Positions 3,967-64,000 of a stretch of 64,000 nucleotides of DNA are shown here, piece by piece. Numbering within the stretch: the first letter of the stretch is position 1; each line of letters begins with the position of its first letter. The notes beneath the pieces were generated by a model, which worked only from the letters and a program-made list of their open reading frames with translations, was not told the origin of the DNA and ran no database searches. The stretch is from positions 2,945 to 66,944 of the forward strand of contig CABQJU010000007.1 of NCBI GenBank assembly GCA_902464575.1. Reading direction: 5' to 3'. The position numbers and the translations under genes were made by a program. The stretch is from an uncultured Collinsella sp. Lineage in GTDB: Bacteria > Actinomycetota > Coriobacteriia > Coriobacteriales > Coriobacteriaceae.

Positions 3967-5268
<1,302 letters not shown>

Positions 5269-7397: not shown

Positions 7398-7503
7398 ACG
7401 GTCCGAATCCTTTCCGCACGGGCTCGTTTTATTCACCCAAACGCTAGCACATCGGACGTGGCACAGGCGTGACTTTCGTCCGTCGCCGCCCTCACCCCTA
7501 TCC

Positions 7504-7568
7504 AAACGTGTACGTCAGCCTCCAAACATGTCATTTTTTGTCGGTTTTGGAGGCTGACGTACACGTTT
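7504..7568. repeat. 65-bp palindromic element, copy 1 (23-bp perfect stem, 19-nt loop)
   Basis: aaacgtgtacgtcagcctccaaa (7504-7526) pairs with tttggaggctgacgtacacgttt (7546-7568); near-identical copy exactly 4300 bp downstream. Confidence 0.9.
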
Positions 7569-7780
7569 TGGAGCGAGGCCGCACACGATCAGAATTGCGC
7601 CCGCACTCCGTCCACCACAAAGTTCGCCGCACTCAACAATTTTGGACTTTCTACGCAGTTCATCGACCAAAAATTACCCTCGGCATACTTACCCGCTGCA
7701 CGATGTTACTCTAGTTGCATTTGGCTAACTAAGCGGCTGCCGAGGACCCCGCCCGGCACCGTTACGGCATAGGAGGTTTC

Positions 7781-11760: not shown

Positions 11761-11803
11761 CGCTGGAGCCGGCGCACGCCGGTGCGCCCCTCGTCTTCGT
11801 CTC

Positions 11804-11868
11804 AAACGTGTACATCAGCCTCCAAACATGTCATTTTTTGTCGGTTTTGGAGGCTGATGTACACGTTT
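11804..11868. repeat. 65-bp palindromic element, copy 2
   Basis: Same element as 7504-7568. The stem change g>a (tacAtcagcc) is compensated by c>t (ggctgaTgta), so the 23-bp stem stays perfect. Confidence 0.9.
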
Positions 11869-12006
11869 TGGAGCGGGGCCGATGCCGCGCGACAAACCTC
11901 ATGCGCCGCGCAGCCTTTCCACTCGATTTCGACTCGCAGCGTGCCCGGCGCGTTAGACGCCGCGCCGTTACAATGGAGCGGATTCGCCAACTGCAAAGGA
12001 GCCGCC

Positions 12007-12924
12007 ATGTCCGCATGCCCGCTGGTCGATTGCCATACCCACACCTCGTTTTCGGACGGGCACGCCTCGTTTGAGGAGAACGTTCGTGCGGCTGCGGCTG
12101 CGGCTGCCGGCTGCCAGGTCATGGTCTCGACCGACCACCTCACCCTGCCCGCCAGCATGGATTCCAACTGCGAGGTGCAGGTTGTCGAGGACGACCTGCC
12201 GGCGCATCGCTTGGCTTTTGAGGAGGCCCGCAAGCTCGCTGCGCAGATTGCACCGGAGCTCGAGCTTATCTATGGTTTTGAGTGCGATTGGTATGAAGGC
12301 TGCGAGCCCTTGGTTGAGCGCTGGTCCGATGGCGCCGTGGTGCGCCTGGGCAGCGTACATTGGATCGGCGACCCCGGCGACATCATGGCCGGCGCCGCGG
12401 GCACGCCGGGAACGGAAGACGTCGCTCGCCCCGATACGCCCGATTCACTCTGCGGTTGGATCGACGATGACACCAACCTGCACGTTTGGGAAAACCTGGG
12501 CGTGCGCGGCGTGTGGGAGCGCTACGTCGACGACTGGTGTCGCGCCTGCGAAAGCTCGCTTAACTTTGATGTGATGGCTCATCCCGACCTGGTCATGCGC
12601 TTTTCGAAGGAAGGCTTTGCACCCGATTTTGACCCCGCGCCGTTCTGGGGGCAGATGGCAGAATGCGCACACGACACGAGTCGGCGCGTTGAGGTCTCGA
12701 CTGCCGCGCCGCGCAAGGGGCTTGACGACTACTACCCCGCGACCGGCCTTTTGCGCTGCTTTGCCCATGCCGAAGTGCCGATCACCTTTGGCTCGGACGC
12801 GCACCGCGCCTGCGATATCTGCTGGAACATCCGCGAGGCCCAGGGCCACGCCTACGACTGCGGCTATCGAACCTTCGACATCCCCCACCTCACCGGCGAA
12901 TGGGAGCCCACGCCCCTCGCCTAA
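12007..12924 (+). CDS. PHP-family histidinol-phosphatase (HisK-like)
   Basis: 305 aa from ATG 12007 with AAGGAG SD; PHP motif DCHTHTSFSDGH; convergent with a his operon that otherwise lacks a histidinol-phosphatase. Confidence 0.7.
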   Translation: MSACPLVDCHTHTSFSDGHASFEENVRAAAAAAAGCQVMVSTDHLTLPASMDSNCEVQVVEDDLPAHRLAFEEARKLAAQIAPELELIYGFECDWYEGCEPLVERWSDGAVVRLGSVHWIGDPGDIMAGAAGTPGTEDVARPDTPDSLCGWIDDDTNLHVWENLGVRGVWERYVDDWCRACESSLNFDVMAHPDLVMRFSKEGFAPDFDPAPFWGQMAECAHDTSRRVEVSTAAPRKGLDDYYPATGLLRCFAHAEVPITFGSDAHRACDICWNIREAQGHAYDCGYRTFDIPHLTGEWEPTPLA

Positions 12925-40220: not shown

Positions 40221-40253
40221 GGACAAGTGACGTAGCTCACTTGTCCTGTTTTC
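40221..40253 (+). terminator. murB intrinsic terminator
   Basis: ggacaagtga-cgtagc-tcacttgtcc followed by tgttttc. Confidence 0.7.
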
Positions 40254-40255
40254 AT

Positions 40256-40621
40256 TTATTTGCGAAGAACATCGGCCATCCGCAGGATTGAAATCATCGA
40301 CCGATAAGTGAGTTCCACCTTTTCGCCCGCAAGCAGTCGTTTCGAGCCAATCTCATCTAGCCCCACAAGCCGAGAAAACAGCGGGCCGCTCATCGTGCCC
40401 TCGTCAATTGACTCCCTTATGGTCTTCAAAACGTCCGTATCATGAAGCGATGCCGAGCTGTAGGGGGCAACACGAGCGGAACTCTCAATTAACGACGAGA
40501 CAAAAGGATGGAGATGCTTTGGACATAGTCCATCAAACACCACATCCCCATTGTCATCCGAGCCGACCAGGCGCCAACTATAATGATCGACCCAGTCGTC
40601 TCCGTCATATATGGTGTCCAT
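40256..40621 (-). CDS. Hypothetical protein with C-terminal XRE-like HTH, in a low-GC islet
   Basis: 121 aa from ATG 40621 (a GTG at 40717 would give 153 aa). The C-terminus LFSRLVGLDEIGSKRLLAGEKVELTYRSMISILRMADVL resembles an XRE HTH. Local GC is visibly lower than the surroundings. Confidence 0.4.
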   Translation of the reverse strand: MDTIYDGDDWVDHYSWRLVGSDDNGDVVFDGLCPKHLHPFVSSLIESSARVAPYSSASLHDTDVLKTIRESIDEGTMSGPLFSRLVGLDEIGSKRLLAGEKVELTYRSMISILRMADVLRK

Positions 40622-40874
40622 GAGCAACTTCCCGTCTAGAGAGAAACCTGTTTGAACATCGGGGCGCAAGACCGCAATCCATCTAGGACCCGCAGCAGCT
40701 CCGACCCAACGCACCACACGACAATTGTATATTGCGACTATTTTAGATCTACATGATCAGTTCGAGTTCGCAACAAGGCGATTATTGCAGCTAGGTTATA
40801 TTTCATTTTCCACTTTGATGAGCCGTCGGCTCCAAATTCCAAAACCGAAGTCCACGGAGTCGATAATTTTATTT

Positions 40875-40901
40875 AAAAAGAAGGCCCCGAAAGGGGCCTT
40901 C
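40875..40901 (-). terminator. Intrinsic terminator ending the NlpC/P60 transcription unit
   Basis: Minus strand gaaggcccc-tttc-ggggccttc followed by TTTTT. Confidence 0.65.
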
Positions 40902-40956
40902 GCCATCTTTATATCAGACAACCAGTCCGGTGTATCGCGCTCAGGACCCGAGAGGG

Positions 40957-41081
40957 CCGGGACAGTCCGAGAGGCATAAGGTTGATCGCGAGTTCCGCAC
41001 GAGCCGGAGAGCACTTAATGTGCTCTCCGTGCGAGCAGGACTGCCCGAGCAGGCAACCTTATGCCTCTCGGACTGTCCCGG
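40957..41081. repeat. Core-in-palindrome element, copy A: 69-nt conserved core flanked by a 28-bp perfect inverted repeat
   Basis: 40957-40984 is the exact reverse complement of 41054-41081. The core at 40985-41053 contains the hairpin GGAGAGCAC-TTAAT-GTGCTCTCC. Confidence 0.9.
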
Positions 41082-41093
41082 ACCAAGCCGCAG

Positions 41094-42299
41094 TTACGAC
41101 AGCGCAATACCGCCAAGCCAGCCCCAGCGCACGCCAGAGCCAGTGCCATAGAAGCTAATAAACGAATCAAGCGACTTAGACGTAATGGCACCCTCGTTGC
41201 TCATAACGATGCCGCCGCCAACGTAGATACCCACATGACCGTAGATAAGGCCCGGAGCACCCGTGCCGCTGTGCGAGGAATCGGCCACGATCATGCCCAC
41301 CTGCAGCGCCGAGCGGTCGGAGCTATAGCACCATGCGTTAAACATGTCGCACGCGTTACCGCCAAAGTAGCCAACGCCGGCGTTACGGAAGACATTGGTG
41401 ACCCACGCCGCGCACCAGTTCTGACCCGGCGAAGGCGTGGAGTAGCACGCGTTGACGACAGCCTGCTGCTTGCCCGAGCCGGCATTCTGCTGCGGAGTTC
41501 CGGGCGCGTACGATCCACCACCCGAGCTCGAACCACCCGAGTAGGAATTGTTCTTGTTCGCGGCAGCCGCGGCAGCGGCAGCCTTCCTAGCGGCCTCCTC
41601 AGCCTGGGCGGCAGCGAGGATCTCGGAATCGCGCTGAGCCATGAGCTCCTTGACGTCGTCGGAAAGACCGTTCAGCACGGTCTGGACTTCTTGCTGCTTG
41701 GCCTGCATGTCCTGCATCTGGGCAGTCTGCTGGTCCTTGAGCTTCTCTAAGTCGGCCTTCTGCGACTCGAGCTCGGTCTTTTGCGCATCGAGCTCTTCCT
41801 GGATGGTCTGAATGTCCTCGATGGCGTCGCGGTCGCTCTTGTTGATCTTCTCAACGTAATGCGCGTTGGCGACGAGTTCCTCAAACGAGCCAGAGGCCAG
41901 CAGCAGCGACAGGATGTTCGTGCCGCCGGACTTGTAGCTGGCGGCCACGCGATCGGAAAGGTCGTTGCGCTTCTTCTTGAGCTCGGCCTTCTTTTCATCG
42001 ATCTGGGCCTGCGTGTCGTCAATCTTGCCCTGGACATTCTCGATGTCGTTGAGGGTCTGGGCATTCTTGTTGGCCAGCGCCGCATACTCATTTGCGATGC
42101 TGTCGAGCTGGGCCTGAACCTCGTCGAGCTGGGCCTGGGCGGCATTCAGTTTATCGGTGGTTTCTTTGGAAGCCTCCGCCGCATGGGCGCGAGCGGGCAG
42201 GCCAAAAAGAACTGCCGCAGAAGCGGCGCCGAACAGGGCCTTGAGGGCAGTGCGGCGCGAGAGCTCCTGGGAAAGGATAGAATCGCTGTTTGGTGACAT
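41094..42299 (-). CDS. Secreted PcsB-like peptidoglycan hydrolase (coiled coil plus NlpC/P60-CHAP-like domain)
   Basis: 401 aa; Tat-like signal SRRTALKALFGAASAA; about 220-aa coiled coil; Ser/Gly linker; C-terminal domain with QNWCAAWV (Cys) and GHVGIYVG (His). Confidence 0.8.
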   Translation of the reverse strand: MSPNSDSILSQELSRRTALKALFGAASAAVLFGLPARAHAAEASKETTDKLNAAQAQLDEVQAQLDSIANEYAALANKNAQTLNDIENVQGKIDDTQAQIDEKKAELKKKRNDLSDRVAASYKSGGTNILSLLLASGSFEELVANAHYVEKINKSDRDAIEDIQTIQEELDAQKTELESQKADLEKLKDQQTAQMQDMQAKQQEVQTVLNGLSDDVKELMAQRDSEILAAAQAEEAARKAAAAAAAANKNNSYSGGSSSGGGSYAPGTPQQNAGSGKQQAVVNACYSTPSPGQNWCAAWVTNVFRNAGVGYFGGNACDMFNAWCYSSDRSALQVGMIVADSSHSGTGAPGLIYGHVGIYVGGGIVMSNEGAITSKSLDSFISFYGTGSGVRWGWLGGIALS

Positions 42300-47848: not shown

Positions 47849-48146
47849 GTCTCAATCTGTAACACCCACTCGGCCAAAACGGTCCTACCTGTTACAGATC
47901 AAGACAAACCGATCCTTTCCCTAGGGTTTATCTCAATCTGTAACATCTAACGTCCGAAATCCGCCCTTACTGTTACAGATTGAGACAAAAGGATAAGCCG
48001 GCTAATACAATCTCGTTCTGTAACAGGTAGCTGCCGAAATCAGCCTCCCGTGTTACAGATCGAGATGAAAGGATAGGCAGCTCGATGCTGTCTCAATCTG
48101 TAACATCTAGACCCAATTTGGCCCTCCTCCTGTTACAGATTGAGAC
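47849..48146. repeat. Tandem array of four hairpin units (15-16-bp inverted arms, 25-nt loops, about 80-bp period)
   Basis: Arms GTCTCAATCTGTAACA / TGTTACAGATTGAGAC at 47849/47890, 47931/47971, 48011/48051 and 48090/48131; loops share a ccgaaat-like core; sits between two convergent terminators. Confidence 0.9.
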
Positions 48147-48170
48147 AAACTGACAGACGAACGGTCCCAA

Positions 48171-58728: not shown

Positions 58729-58865
58729 AAGGGTGCAGAGCTGAGGAAACGCGAAGGCGCCCCAAGCCCATTAGGACCAAGAGCGTCTTACATCTTGAAA
58801 TATCAGCCCAATTCCGAAAAGCGAGCCGCCTTCTACAACGTGCCGTGTGGCCCCGACGGGCCGGG

Positions 58866-58910
58866 CATTAAGTTTGTCGCGAGTTCCGCACGAACAGGAG
58901 GCCACTTAAC
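58866..58910 (+). repeat. Truncated copy C of the conserved core (left half only)
   Basis: gcattaagtttgtcgcgagttccgcacgaacaggaggccacttaac matches the left arm end plus the first ~33 nt of the core of copies A and B; no right arm. Confidence 0.7.
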
Positions 58911-58931
58911 CTCGATGTTTTGGACGTGACA

Positions 58932-59037
58932 GCGAGAGGGGCCCTGGTATGGCAAGGTGACGTGAAACAAGGCGGCGCTGACCTTCTGGTCGCGCCGCCG
59001 AAGTTGAACGTCAGATTGCCGTGCCAGGGCCCCTCGC
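58932..59037. repeat. 106-nt long imperfect hairpin (candidate structured RNA)
   Basis: Arms gcgagaggggccctggtatggcaaggtgacgt / acgtcagattgccgtgccagggcccctcgc with an apical GGCGGCGC(T)GACC-TTCT-GGTCGCGCCGCC hairpin. Confidence 0.7.
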
Positions 59038-59041
59038 AGCG

Positions 59042-59072
59042 TCAAGAAGACCGCCGTTCGGTAGAACGGCGG
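59042..59072 (-). terminator. Terminator of the Toprim-domain gene
   Basis: Minus strand ccgccgttc-tacc-gaacggcgg followed by tcttctt, starting 3 nt after the stop codon. Confidence 0.6.
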
Positions 59073-59074
59073 AG

Positions 59075-61291
59075 CTAATTGTTCAGCATGCGGTCGAAGC
59101 TTCCCGAGTCGCCATCCCGATAGTCTGCGGTCATCAGAATCTCCTGCGGAATGCGCCCGCCTTCACGTAGCACGTTGCGGAACTGCACGCGCGTAACCAT
59201 GGGCAGATCCTTGATCGTCGCTGCCAGGTTCTGCGGCACGCCCTGGTTGGCAGCCGCGGGCTCGCACTCGCCGCCGGCCTTCACGCGACGCTTATGCTCG
59301 GCGAGCATGGCGCGGTACATGCCGGCATGCAGGCGAATCTCAACCACATTGGCATTGCGAGCCTGTTCGACGATGCGCGCGCCCTCGCGATCGATATCGC
59401 CTACGTAGTAGACGTAGTTAAAGCGATAGCCAATCTCGGCCAGATAATCGTCCAAGGCATGCGAGACGCTCGCCTTGCATCCGCCGCCAAAAATCACGCC
59501 GCCCACCTTGATGCCAAAGAGCTTGGCGTGCTTGCGGCCACGCAGCAGCTTGACGATCTCGTCGTAGGTGTCCAGGTTCTCGACCATAATGAACGGCTTG
59601 TCGGCTCCCAGCGTAAAGAAGCCCGTAAAGTGCACGGGGCGATTGGGGGCGACCTTGATCGCCTGCATGCTGATGCCCTTTTCGGTCATACGCCTGATCA
59701 AGCGCTCACCGTGCTTGCCGTCAAAAGCCTTCTCGTCGTTAAAGATCTGGTAGGCACGCTGGCGGCGCGAGGCAACCGGCGTATCGGCACCTCGGTTCTG
59801 CTCGATCCAAGCCTGGATGATTGCGATTTCCTCGGCAATCTTGCGGTTGGACATCTCGTTGTGCTGAGTGCGCTGCGGAGCCTTTTTGCCGTCCTTGCCC
59901 TCGACCTTTACGATCTGTGTCTGCTGCTCCTTAATCTTGGAGAGCGCCATTGGCGTGGGAACGACCTTGAGCAGCTGCCTGCCCAGGACACGGGCCAGAG
60001 CAAACGCCGAAACCTCGCCATGAGCGGGCTGCTCAGGCTGCTGGGCGGCCGCATCGTTTGCAGTCGGTTTGGGCTGCGCCTGGGATTTGTGCTTGGAATC
60101 TGCCTGAGCTTTGCGCTCTTGCTTTGGCGCGGACGAGCTCTTTTGCGAACGTTCAGGCTTGTCCCCCTTCGCCGGCTGGCGCTTGGGCTGCTCCACCGGG
60201 GTCTCAGCCTTCACATCCTTGTTTTGCGTTGTCGCCTTCTCGGCCACGGTTTCGGCATTTGAGCCACGTCCGCCACGGTGACGACGACGGCGGGGCTTGC
60301 TCGAAGCGCTCTCCCCCGCCTGTTTATCAGCGGACTGTTGAACTTTGACCTCGGTGTCAGCCGCAGGCTGCGACTCGGAAGGTTGCTGCTCGCGAGCCGC
60401 CGGCTCAACGGTTTTCTCGGTTTGTTCGGCCTTATCGGCCTGAGCGGTCGAAGCCGGCTCGCCCTTCTCCTGACGCTTTACGGGATACGCGCGCCCTGCA
60501 AAACCGCGGCCGGGACGACACGAACCCGGAGCCCTCTTGGCAGACTCCTCAACATCGTCTGCAACCTCGGAAGGCTCTTCAACCTCACGCGCGACATCCT
60601 GCTGCGCAGCCTTGAAGTGAGCACCGCGACGACGCTTGGGCTCTTGGGCCTCCACGGGCTTTTGTTCCTTCGCGGGCTCCTGCGACTCAGCGGCAACCTC
60701 GGTCTCAACAGCCTCAGCATCCGTCTCACCCTTTCGAGCAACGGCGCGACGGAAGCGCTCCTGCTGGGCGCGGCGCTGCGCATCGCGCTTGCCACCCCCG
60801 CCAAAACCGCCGCGTCCTGCCTTGGCCGTAAAGGCACGCACGACGTTCTCATCGAGCAACTCATCGGTATCGACATGCTCACGCGGGGCAACTTCTTCCA
60901 CAGCAGGCACGTCAGCGGGATCCTCGACGACAAAATCCTCGACGGACTCGGCAGGCTGCTCCTGGGCATCGCGGATCTCGGCATTGATGGTATAGAACGC
61001 CGGGCGCCCGTTAATGCCGCTACCCTCGATCTTGGTCACGATATTTGCCGCGATAAGCTCATCGCGCATCGCCTTGGTGTCACATTCCTTATCGACGGAG
61101 CGGAAAATTTGCGCCAGCGCGCTCGACTTGATCTTGAGCGCCTTGCGGCAAAGCAGGTCGTAGGCAACCAGCTTGGCACGCTCAGCAGAAAGCGATGTCT
61201 GGCTGCTCAGACGCTCAGCCAGGGCATCGACATTATTTTGGTTATCGGAATATACCGTCTTGGCCACGGGGCCCCTTTCATATGTACACAT
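59075..61291 (-). CDS. Orphan JetD/MksG-like (DUF2220-type) Toprim-domain protein with N-terminal wHTH-like domain and a long low-complexity linker
   Basis: 738 aa (alternative GTG start at 61267 after AAAGGGG). The C-terminus has FIMVENLDTYDEI, VIFGGGCKAS, YYVGDIDREGARIVEQAR and LHAGMYRAMLAEH in the order seen in JetD/TopoVI-A Toprim domains. The middle ~300 aa are K/E/Q/P/A-rich. Confidence 0.55.
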   Translation of the reverse strand: MCTYERGPVAKTVYSDNQNNVDALAERLSSQTSLSAERAKLVAYDLLCRKALKIKSSALAQIFRSVDKECDTKAMRDELIAANIVTKIEGSGINGRPAFYTINAEIRDAQEQPAESVEDFVVEDPADVPAVEEVAPREHVDTDELLDENVVRAFTAKAGRGGFGGGGKRDAQRRAQQERFRRAVARKGETDAEAVETEVAAESQEPAKEQKPVEAQEPKRRRGAHFKAAQQDVAREVEEPSEVADDVEESAKRAPGSCRPGRGFAGRAYPVKRQEKGEPASTAQADKAEQTEKTVEPAAREQQPSESQPAADTEVKVQQSADKQAGESASSKPRRRRHRGGRGSNAETVAEKATTQNKDVKAETPVEQPKRQPAKGDKPERSQKSSSAPKQERKAQADSKHKSQAQPKPTANDAAAQQPEQPAHGEVSAFALARVLGRQLLKVVPTPMALSKIKEQQTQIVKVEGKDGKKAPQRTQHNEMSNRKIAEEIAIIQAWIEQNRGADTPVASRRQRAYQIFNDEKAFDGKHGERLIRRMTEKGISMQAIKVAPNRPVHFTGFFTLGADKPFIMVENLDTYDEIVKLLRGRKHAKLFGIKVGGVIFGGGCKASVSHALDDYLAEIGYRFNYVYYVGDIDREGARIVEQARNANVVEIRLHAGMYRAMLAEHKRRVKAGGECEPAAANQGVPQNLAATIKDLPMVTRVQFRNVLREGGRIPQEILMTADYRDGDSGSFDRMLNN

Positions 61292-63707: not shown

Positions 63708-63860
63708 GCCCCTGAGAGCCGCGGGAGCCGGGCGGCGCATATGAACTTTCCTGCTCTACAGTCCTGCGCAAGACGGAAAGCACATTAAGTGCTTTCCTTT
63801 GCGTGCGGAGCTCGCGATAAAGTTCATATGCGCCGCCCGGCTCCCGCGGCTCTCAGGGGC
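63708..63860. repeat. Core-in-palindrome element, copy B: the same 69-nt core (inverted) flanked by a 42-bp perfect inverted repeat
   Basis: 63708-63749 is the exact reverse complement of 63819-63860. The reverse complement of the core at 63750-63818 aligns with 40985-41053 over the same 69-nt length. Confidence 0.9.
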
Positions 63861-64000
63861 TCCCATCCCAAATGCGGGGCAAAGCTCCGCACGCCAACTT
63901 TTTCTTTCAGCTAAAGAACGCCGGAAATTCGACGCTGGCTTGTTAACCTTGCTGGACGTTGTCGACGCCAAACCAGCCCAGAAGCTATATCGATACAGAA

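Follow-up and report, generated by a model that had tools for sequence, protein, structure and literature searches.

The palindrome at positions 40957–41081 of the window, the whole 64,000-nucleotide stretch of DNA from an uncultured Collinsella sp. that was analysed here, is one copy (copy A) of an intergenic repeat family with a conserved, asymmetric centre and perfectly paired arms peculiar to each copy. A family of this design had been predicted from the window alone and is real; no description of it was found in the literature searched, and it is apparently undescribed so far. The best-supported view of its history is that it is old, vertically inherited and specific to Collinsella, and its copies occupy fixed loci common to many Collinsella lineages. 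Our explanation of its form, held with moderate confidence, is that these are palindromic intergenic repeats whose arms would be kept perfect by template switching, whose core would be under selection, and which would act as stable hairpins in 3′ untranslated regions (3′ UTRs).

A scan of 185,579 species-representative genomes with the pattern CGAGYTCCGCACG-N(8-12)-CACTTAA matched at least 120 loci. Among the matches listed, almost every record title has the name Collinsella or Coriobacteriaceae; the few exceptions are titled ‘uncultured bacterium’, or are bins titled Methanobrevibacter smithii or Ruminococcus, names that probably reflect bin contamination. Searching relatives for the core, as had been suggested with the original prediction, led to a collection of at least 176 full copies at about 23 distinct loci; the element is 125–155 bp long and lies at intergenic sites, and blastn finds it at 13 places in one 899,693-bp C. 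aerofaciens replicon (~14 per Mb). A covariance model (R1) built from 39 distinct elements recovered, when run on other loci, a divergent subfamily that the pattern had missed, and in the window it recognises two full copies (A and B) and one half copy (copy C). A scan of the window at Rfam gathering thresholds returned two tRNAs only and no family match to the element, and a scan of 40900–41130 by E-value returned only generic long-hairpin miRNA models, at for example 46 bits against a threshold of 130. The phage collection held no match. Among the viral contigs scanned there were only two true copies, L003 and L010, both orthologous to copy C and representing a tRNA-Gln locus inside a predicted-prophage contig; the right-side pattern GCAGGACTGNNNGAGCAGG gave only chance matches on viral contigs, owing to a 1-nt length variant.

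A conserved core between perfectly paired arms

Three zones make up the element: an asymmetric core of ~69 nt, ~8–12 semi-conserved proximal arm bases (typically TTAAGTTT / AAACTTAA), and distal arms of 20–45 bp. In copy A the coordinates confirm that the two arms are exact reverse complements with a 69-nt core between them (Table 1). The inverted repeat is perfect over 28 bp and stretches to 31 bp at 97% with one mismatch; its hairpin has a fold z-score of -9.7 relative to shuffled sequence, and the chance expectation for a perfect inverted repeat of at least 28 bp within 100 nt is ~1e-10 per 64 kb. The core of copy A has the invariant blocks TCGCGAGTTCCGCACG and CAGGACTG..GAGCAG together with a variable, covarying middle helix. 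Across the family these blocks read TCGCGAG(T/C)TCCGCACG and CAGGACTG-(2-3 nt)-GAGCAG, are largely unpaired, and are identical in 39 of 39 aligned elements, and the middle helix occurs in three versions that use different registers (AGCC/GTGCGAG, CAAA/GTCTTGCG and AACA/GTCGTGAG). The covariation first noticed in the apical hairpin of two copies extends to the larger sample, where four of the nine pairs of the apical stem vary, each time with compensation, and only one G-U pair occurs in 351 cells. The 51 distinct cores are mosaics across loci, and exchange between copies is suggested because the variants mix a few modules.

The apex of the core is replaceable. In the L258 lineage, whose MurB is only 86% identical, an element with 45-bp arms stands at the same site as copy A and has GGAGGCGCC-AGC-GGCGCCTCC as its apex, the remaining core being the same; the TTAAT loop is therefore not a defining feature, and we dropped it as a candidate recombination or cleavage site. 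A separate set of copies (L210, L226 and L236, with the junction GGAACTC/ATTTTGAGCAAGCACCCGCCC, as well as L195 and L245) has the ATCGCGAG end of the core swapped for other sequence from position ~7. The same replaced-end junction appears in three independent samples with different arm alleles, and these copies probably belong to an additional subfamily that resides at a different locus and became attached through misassembly.

Copy B repeats the design with a core of the same length, inverted relative to that of copy A, in perfect 42-bp arms (63708–63749 and 63819–63860) whose hairpin has a fold z-score of -14.7. The two cores agree in 57 of 71 gapped columns (80%, against the four-fifths originally judged by eye), or at 47 of 69 positions when no gaps are allowed. 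In L116 and L134 the counterpart of copy B stands on the right in a head-to-head pair of elements; for copy B itself the partner is expected a short way outside the window, beyond position 64000. Copy C, correctly recognised at the outset as a left half ending at 58910, breaks off at that position, precisely within the apical loop. Its flanks line up collinearly with those of its orthologues in L119 and L003, only the right half-core and right arm having been replaced, and the L119 orthologue is a complete element with perfect 33-bp arms; before truncation the layout was that of copy A, with stop codon, element and terminator in order. Breakage at the palindrome centre followed by illegitimate repair would leave such a state.

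Two further features of the copy C locus were seen. Where the right half is missing, positions 58927–59044 hold an unrelated imperfect hairpin (42-nt arms, 76% complementary, around a 34-nt centre), after which comes a terminator-like hairpin, and only the terminator part has a relative, in L109. In the orthologous IMG/VR contig L003, positions 12100–12800 contain a duplicated segment resembling a tRNA 3′ end and an AT-rich insert of ~430 nt between tRNA-Gln and the element. This arrangement suggests an integrative element at tRNA-Gln, which is probably why the contig was called viral.

Arm statistics were compiled as an unbiased count from 117 distinct, non-chimeric elements; the arm-pairing percentage of the covariation sample is inflated, its sequences having been chosen for at least 20 perfect arm pairs. 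Arm length has a median of 31 bp. Watson-Crick pairs outnumber mismatches by 3586 to 53 (98.5%), and 68% of the elements are free of mismatches. Those that occur are of transition type in 41 cases and of transversion type in 12, and look like fresh mutations. The transition-type mismatches divide into 23 G·T on the top strand and 18 on the bottom, so that neither strand shows wobble tolerance, and comparison of the RNA folding energies of the two strands revealed no difference.

The distal arms differ from locus to locus. That only about 12 core-proximal nucleotides are alike between copies, as first described, agrees with the 8–12 semi-conserved bases; to call the distal arms unrelated went too far, given that arms tend to be 5′-G-rich and 3′-C-rich on either strand (309 G versus 227 C) and that at orthologous loci they are recognisably homologous alleles which have diverged with compensation. 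Mean identity between orthologues is 0.90 and 0.89 in the arm zones, 0.91 and 0.94 in the flanks and 0.95 in the core; the arms diverge at about the rate of neighbouring non-coding DNA and the core more slowly. Compensated differences between alleles are of transversion type in 82 cases versus 42 of transition type, and since a transversion-type change cannot pass through G·T, no wobble intermediate was available to it.

Variation within a population was followed at the locus of copy A (locus A) in 80 human-gut contigs whose neighbouring protein is 97–100% identical. There are at least eight arm alleles, each compensated on the opposite arm, around a conserved core, and adjacent genes only 0.17% apart carry allele a, c or d. 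The arm allele does not follow the tree of the adjacent gene, and the entire interval from stop codon to terminator is polymorphic at a similar level; these variants are therefore long-standing alleles of a recombining population, and on the same grounds we dropped hypermutability of the arms as an explanation.

Single copies record larger changes. In copy L152+ the right half-core has been rewritten as the perfect complement of the left half, and in L258 the 45-bp arms cover what is non-palindromic flank in C. aerofaciens, with an almost unchanged core-to-terminator distance of 89 nt versus 82–84 nt in the latter. In a single event, template switching is known to create, homogenise or extend the arms of a hairpin (PMC8794818, PMC8604942, PMC13100816), and it can invert the spacers of inverted repeats (PMC8604942). 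The marks of hairpins shaped in this way are all found here, namely changes in both arms, transversions, the absence of wobble intermediates, and extension of arms without change in length. Judged from these sequence patterns, the perfect arms are best explained by templated correction at the level of DNA, the kind of process to which the original prediction had pointed.

Orientation, inheritance and competing explanations

The element is oriented with respect to neighbouring genes. At eight of 23 unique loci a stop codon lies 2–18 nt from the GAGCAGG-side arm, and at none does one lie within the 25-nt limit on the ATCGCGAG side (p = 0.008); at three further loci a start codon or ribosome-binding site (RBS) abuts the GAGCAGG side. 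Of 31 locus representatives, 17 have a terminator-like hairpin within 130 nt on the ATCGCGAG side and three have one on the other side. The commonest layout is thus a stop codon, 2–18 nt, the GAGCAGG-side arm, the core, the other arm, 15–60 nt and an intrinsic terminator, so that the mRNA meets CCUGCUC... first. Copy A fits this layout. The minus-strand pcsB-like gene ends in a TAA codon at 41094–41096, 12 nt from the nearer arm, its mRNA carries the reverse complement of the core as read on the plus strand, and a terminator-like hairpin with a T-run follows at 40901–40880 of the minus strand, 55 nt from copy A, where it is common to the pcsB-like gene and the convergent murB. Since copy A is situated between stop codon and terminator, it is very probably transcribed as 3′ UTR of the pcsB-like gene, which supports what had been proposed for it.

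Between convergent genes, elements form head-to-head pairs, one for each stop codon; their orientation thus goes with the gene rather than with the replication fork. We considered such pairs as a composite element with a conserved spacer and rejected this, the spacers being locus-specific. Neighbouring genes are of housekeeping type (murB, pcsB-like, cstA, groES). The polarity rule is a strong tendency and not absolute, and the rules of orientation favour a strand-specific role. The elements themselves do not resemble intrinsic terminators: a T-run lies within 9 nt of the hairpin at one of 31 loci on the top strand and at five on the bottom strand.

No hairpin devoid of a core was found among the genome loci that share both flanks, as had been looked for in sister strains at the suggestion of the original prediction; among these loci, drawn from the at least 120 in the genome set, the flank-to-flank distance peaks at the occupied length, and the histogram of flank gaps has nothing near 120 nt. 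At locus A the element is present in 71 of about 73 assessable contigs, and none of the 80 population contigs has an arms-only site. The two core-less contigs, L187 and L213, come from independent samples and retain one arm, identical to allele d, and the proximal arms, the other arm in its entirety and some 16 bases more are missing from them as well; alleles d and g have two AGGC repeats, and a deletion between these would explain the contigs, the junction matching exactly. Beyond the lineage of L258, a more distant species (L260, with MurB 74% identical) has no element after the orthologous pcsB stop codon, just a short terminator-like hairpin. On the minus strand of L260, at ~4330–4370 and ~230 nt past the PcsB stop, GCGAGACGAAGGGCCGCACATTAATGTGC resembles GCGCAAGACGAAGGCCACATTAAGTGGCC of the core and could be a degenerate relative of it or a chance likeness.

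Signs of mobility were looked for as well. Inspection of 31 locus representatives found no direct repeats outside the arms that would mark a target-site duplication. The outer arms differ at each locus, with only the 8–12 core-proximal bases semi-conserved, which is not the conserved terminal repeat of a MITE (miniature inverted-repeat transposable element), and neither the genome loci nor the assessable locus-A contigs display the clean empty-site polymorphism of one. In 1.2 Mb of locus sequence no insertion sequence (IS) has core halves at its ends, and there are only four solo-left and a few solo-right fragments. No recombinase, nuclease, invertase or transposase recurs beside copies in the loci inspected, and no gene for a RAYT (the IS200/IS605-like Y1 transposase that repeats flank in REP and REPIN systems) is annotated in 100 kb of NZ_OY725717.1.

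The mechanism that we propose has two parts. Intramolecular template switching during replication (quasipalindrome correction) would keep the arms perfect and sometimes lengthen them, RNA-level selection alone not being the probable source of their perfection. The asymmetry of the core would outlast this homogenisation through selection, aided by conversion between copies; that the core is under selection is argued by its resistance to homogenisation and by the lack of a flipped core at any locus of the genome set. The very stable hairpin in the 3′ UTR could then serve as a barrier to 3′ exonucleases or as a processing site of the RNase III type, in the manner of REP and ERIC sequences, with the conserved core as the part that a protein would recognise. 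By this analogy a role in the protection or processing of RNA ends is most likely.

Several points weigh against this explanation. RNA-specific signals were sought, in the form of G-U tolerance and a difference in folding energy between strands, and none were found. At a minority of loci the element comes after the terminator, stands upstream of a strong promoter or adjoins an RBS; transcription there would run through it in the opposite sense or miss it altogether. Selection for pairing, instead of template switching, could keep the arms paired. As to how the copies first spread, no target-site duplication, clean insertion polymorphism or associated transposase was seen. The pattern used in the genome scan demanded CGAGYTCCGCACG...CACTTAA, so that family diversity and host range are underestimated (the apex of L258 differs); the material is mostly metagenome-assembled genomes (MAGs) and metagenome contigs, whose consensus may hide variants; and genes were called with a crude caller of open reading frames (ORFs) based on GC3.

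It is unlikely, but deserves serious weight, that the repeats are a selfish or neutral relic of an ancient MITE-like burst without present function, the core being conserved by conversion between copies and the polarity reflecting which insertions were tolerated. Core variants that are modules reshuffled among loci are what inter-copy conversion predicts, and the heterogeneity of contexts (3′ UTR, between terminator and promoter, next to an RBS) and the lack of the RNA-specific signals tested are both congenial to this idea. However, an unconstrained 69-nt spacer should have been symmetrised or flipped, whereas the invariant blocks are identical in every aligned element and no locus of the genome set is flipped; the element has stayed at the same locus even where MurB has diverged as far as in L258; and stop codons divided 8 to 0 between the two sides, with terminators divided 17 to 3, call for an orientation-dependent cause.

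Rather less probable is a role at the level of DNA, in which an extruded hairpin or cruciform, or a hairpin in single-stranded DNA at the fork, would show the core to a DNA-binding protein, the copies acting as organising or recombination sites; a nucleoid or topology factor (as at BIMEs), a recombinase or an HUH nuclease are candidates. Arms with Watson-Crick pairs only, whose mismatches have no strand bias, would suit such a role, as would the breakage of copy C exactly at the hairpin tip, the variable islands beside some copies (40237–40925 in the window and a 2.2-kb island in L158, both described below) and, on direct view of the sequence, the palindromic hexamer TCGCGA in an invariant block. 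Yet orientation tracks the neighbouring gene, head-to-head pairs misfit a replication-strand rule, in the loci inspected the copies have no recombinase or nuclease gene as a recurrent neighbour, and neither Pfam nor PADLOC has a match for the genes tested. Ectopic exchange finds no support in isolates: many copies look chimeric, with arms from two different loci or mismatched apical stems, but all of these come from MAGs or metagenome contigs, where many contigs terminate inside the element. We dropped the chimeric copies as proof of recombination between copies, such joins being indistinguishable from misassembly at a repeat.

We place slightly less belief in a directional process, in which a strand-specific core recognised by a protein would drive the synthesis of one arm on the template of the other, through fold-back or template switching, so that the element would build its own arms from flanking DNA and expand until it reached a stop codon. 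Such copying would account together for the 8-to-0 polarity, for arm ends 2–18 nt from stop codons and for the core-less allele with one arm. If it also acts at insertion, the repeat would be a mobile element that makes an inverted, not a direct, target duplication.

Improbable is the proposal made with the original prediction that a miniature transposable element of ~90 nt (~93 nt as first put; the core with ~12-nt inverted repeats) inserts into the loops of older hairpins, as IS1397 does in REPs. The proximal 8–12 arm bases are indeed conserved in the family where the distal ones are not, and at some loci the outermost few arm bases are common to alleles that differ in the middle of the arm. 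But neither the loci with both flanks shared nor the 80 locus-A contigs include an arms-only allele, and the sole core-less allele, best read as a deletion, has a single arm. Without the core and the proximal arms, what remained would be perfect palindromes of 40–70 bp with no loop, unlike natural terminators, and the arms are followed by T-runs at very few loci, as given above; the element-free L260 has just its short hairpin, and no target-site duplication was seen. Least credible of all is an inverton, in which a site-specific or template-switch inversion would flip the 69-nt core, with the perfect arms as its inverted repeats: the short asymmetric segment between perfect inverted repeats, the capacity of template switching to invert such spacers (PMC8604942) and one contig, L234, with the core flipped after the same arm would fit, but the L234 flip falls at the end of its contig, and a palindrome in that place leaves the assembly graph ambiguous, the other assessable locus-A contigs are all of one orientation, no locus of the genome set has the core in both, and no invertase gene is adjacent.

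Features of the window

Table 1. Positions of the repeat copies and their associated features in the window.
Feature	Position	Strand	Basis or remark
Copy A, whole hairpin	40957..41081	+ (core read ATCGCGAG...GAGCAGG)	112.9 bits, covariance model R1
Copy A arm, ATCGCGAG side, 28 nt	40957..40984	+	pairs with 41054-41081 without a mismatch
Copy A core, 69 nt	40985..41053	+	family alignment and list of 51 distinct cores
Copy A apical hairpin, GGAGAGCAC-TTAAT-GTGCTCTCC	41006..41028	+	covariation at 4/9 pairs
Copy A arm, GAGCAGG side	41054..41081	+	12 nt short of the stop codon of the minus-strand gene
Gene for peptidoglycan hydrolase, PcsB coiled-coil and CHAP/NlpC-P60-like	41094..42299	-	Pfam matches; 80 orthologous contigs
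Intrinsic terminator closing the 3′ UTR with copy A	40880..40901	-	predicted; conserved in orthologues
Copy B, perfect 42-bp arms, core 63750-63818	63708..63860	-	122 bits, covariance model R1
Copy C, half element	58844..58910	+	left arm and left half-core, up to the apical loop (ending CACTTAA)
Sequence replacing the right half of copy C	58911..59075	+	about 165 nt

Beside copy A, between murB and the shared terminator, lies an accessory insert of ~690 bp (40237–40925), found in only five of the locus-A contigs that reach that far, irrespective of arm allele; it carries an ORF of 153 aa (40256–40717) with no Pfam and no PADLOC match. The motif TTATCAGA(T/C)AA (reverse complement TTATCTGAATAAATATGG) occurs at 40905–40925 and at many loci, including the flanks of L059, L064, L073 and L119, where it sits 5–20 nt from intrinsic terminators near elements, and may be a general Collinsella terminator feature or a binding site. 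Elsewhere, L158 has between two inverted copies of the element a low-GC island of 2.2 kb (436–2601) with two ORFs of 287 and 342 aa, neither of which has a Pfam or PADLOC match; the island is absent from the orthologous loci L064 and L150, and as the source is a MAG, misassembly is possible.

The window also contains repeats of other kinds. Four tandem units of 80–81 nt (47849–48169) lie between two convergent ORFs, each with a 16-nt perfect inverted repeat (GTCTCAATCTGTAACA ... TGTTACAGATTGAGAC), a variable loop of ~27 nt and a variable linker of ~20 nt; the stem is constant and the loop variable, the spacing is not that of CRISPR, and no copy of the unit occurs among the other loci collected. 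A 79-nt palindromic repeat is present twice (7503–7581 and 11803–11881), 4.3 kb apart and 96% identical, each copy coming after one of two paralogous ABC-transporter-like gene segments. Finally, an 88-nt direct repeat (1644–1731 and 1840–1927, 86% identical), which begins inside the 3′ end of tRNA-Leu (1577–1661), looks like an att-type duplication from an integrated element.

Significance and relation to known repeat systems

Collinsella is an abundant genus of the human gut, and the element breaks short-read assemblies and seeds chimeric joins in MAGs, which matters to users of Collinsella MAGs. The family is also a natural experiment, replicated at dozens of loci in hundreds of strains, in which arms drift almost neutrally and yet remain perfectly paired around a centre that resists; with it, the share of template switching in ‘compensatory’ evolution becomes directly measurable, and covariation in such stems is no evidence for RNA selection. 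Should the core turn out to bind a protein or to serve RNA processing from its place just behind stop codons, it would constitute a genus-wide layer of 3′-UTR control in an actinobacterial gut commensal.

The mutational process is the closest precedent for the arms. Template-switch or quasipalindrome mutation (the Ripley model; Mönttinen & Löytynoja, PMC8794818; PMC8604942) accounts for perfect Watson-Crick arms, for one-step ‘compensatory’ changes including transversions, for extension of arms at constant length and for the L152 copy, but it is a mechanism and not an element family, and leaves the protected core, the multi-copy state and the polarity unaccounted for. Among element families, bacterial MITEs (Correia/NEMIS, RUP, MITEAba12) are likewise small, non-coding, multi-copy and hairpin-capable, and often co-transcribed with their neighbours; what sets them apart is that their terminal inverted repeats are conserved, that target-site duplications flank them, that they are polymorphic for presence/absence and that they have a parent IS, and of these traits none was found in the Collinsella loci examined. 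IS1397 and ISKpn1 (and members of the IS110 family) in the loops of REPs or palindromic units (PUs) offer the analogy, drawn by the original prediction, of a mobile sequence at a palindrome centre, but they are protein-coding and target a conserved repeat, whereas in Collinsella each locus has arms of its own and no empty palindrome that could be such a target was found. Integron attC sites, which have conserved R′′/R′ ends (RYYYAAC...GTTRRRY), a variable centre and cassette arrays with intI, are the inverse of the Collinsella repeat, whose neighbours are housekeeping genes.

The nearest likenesses are with the intergenic palindromes of other bacteria. REP/BIME sequences and REPINs of Enterobacteria and Pseudomonas are high-copy extragenic palindromes in transcribed 3′ regions or between genes, with stable hairpins and compensated stems; for REP/BIMEs, protein binding and a stabilising effect on mRNA 3′ ends have been proposed, and REPINs are ~100-nt hairpins of two inverted units. 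In them, however, the paired arms are what is conserved, the repeated unit being an imperfect palindrome of 20–40 nt headed by GTAG or CGTC, and variation falls in the loop or spacer. The Collinsella arrangement is the reverse, and no sequence similarity was seen. ERIC/IRU sequences of Enterobacteriaceae and Vibrio are palindromes of ~127 bp at fixed orthologous loci in transcribed intergenic regions, comparable in size and placement, and form long RNA hairpins that affect mRNA stability; in contrast to the Collinsella repeat they are imperfect palindromes conserved over their whole length, with no copy-specific perfect arms, and are unrelated in sequence and host. By probable role, the repeat is most likely to be grouped with REP/BIME, REPIN and ERIC, although it does not display the features that define those families, or those that define MITEs. 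The best reading is that the Collinsella repeat is a variant of the bacterial intergenic stem-loop repeats, with an architecture inverse to that of REP/BIME, REPIN and ERIC.

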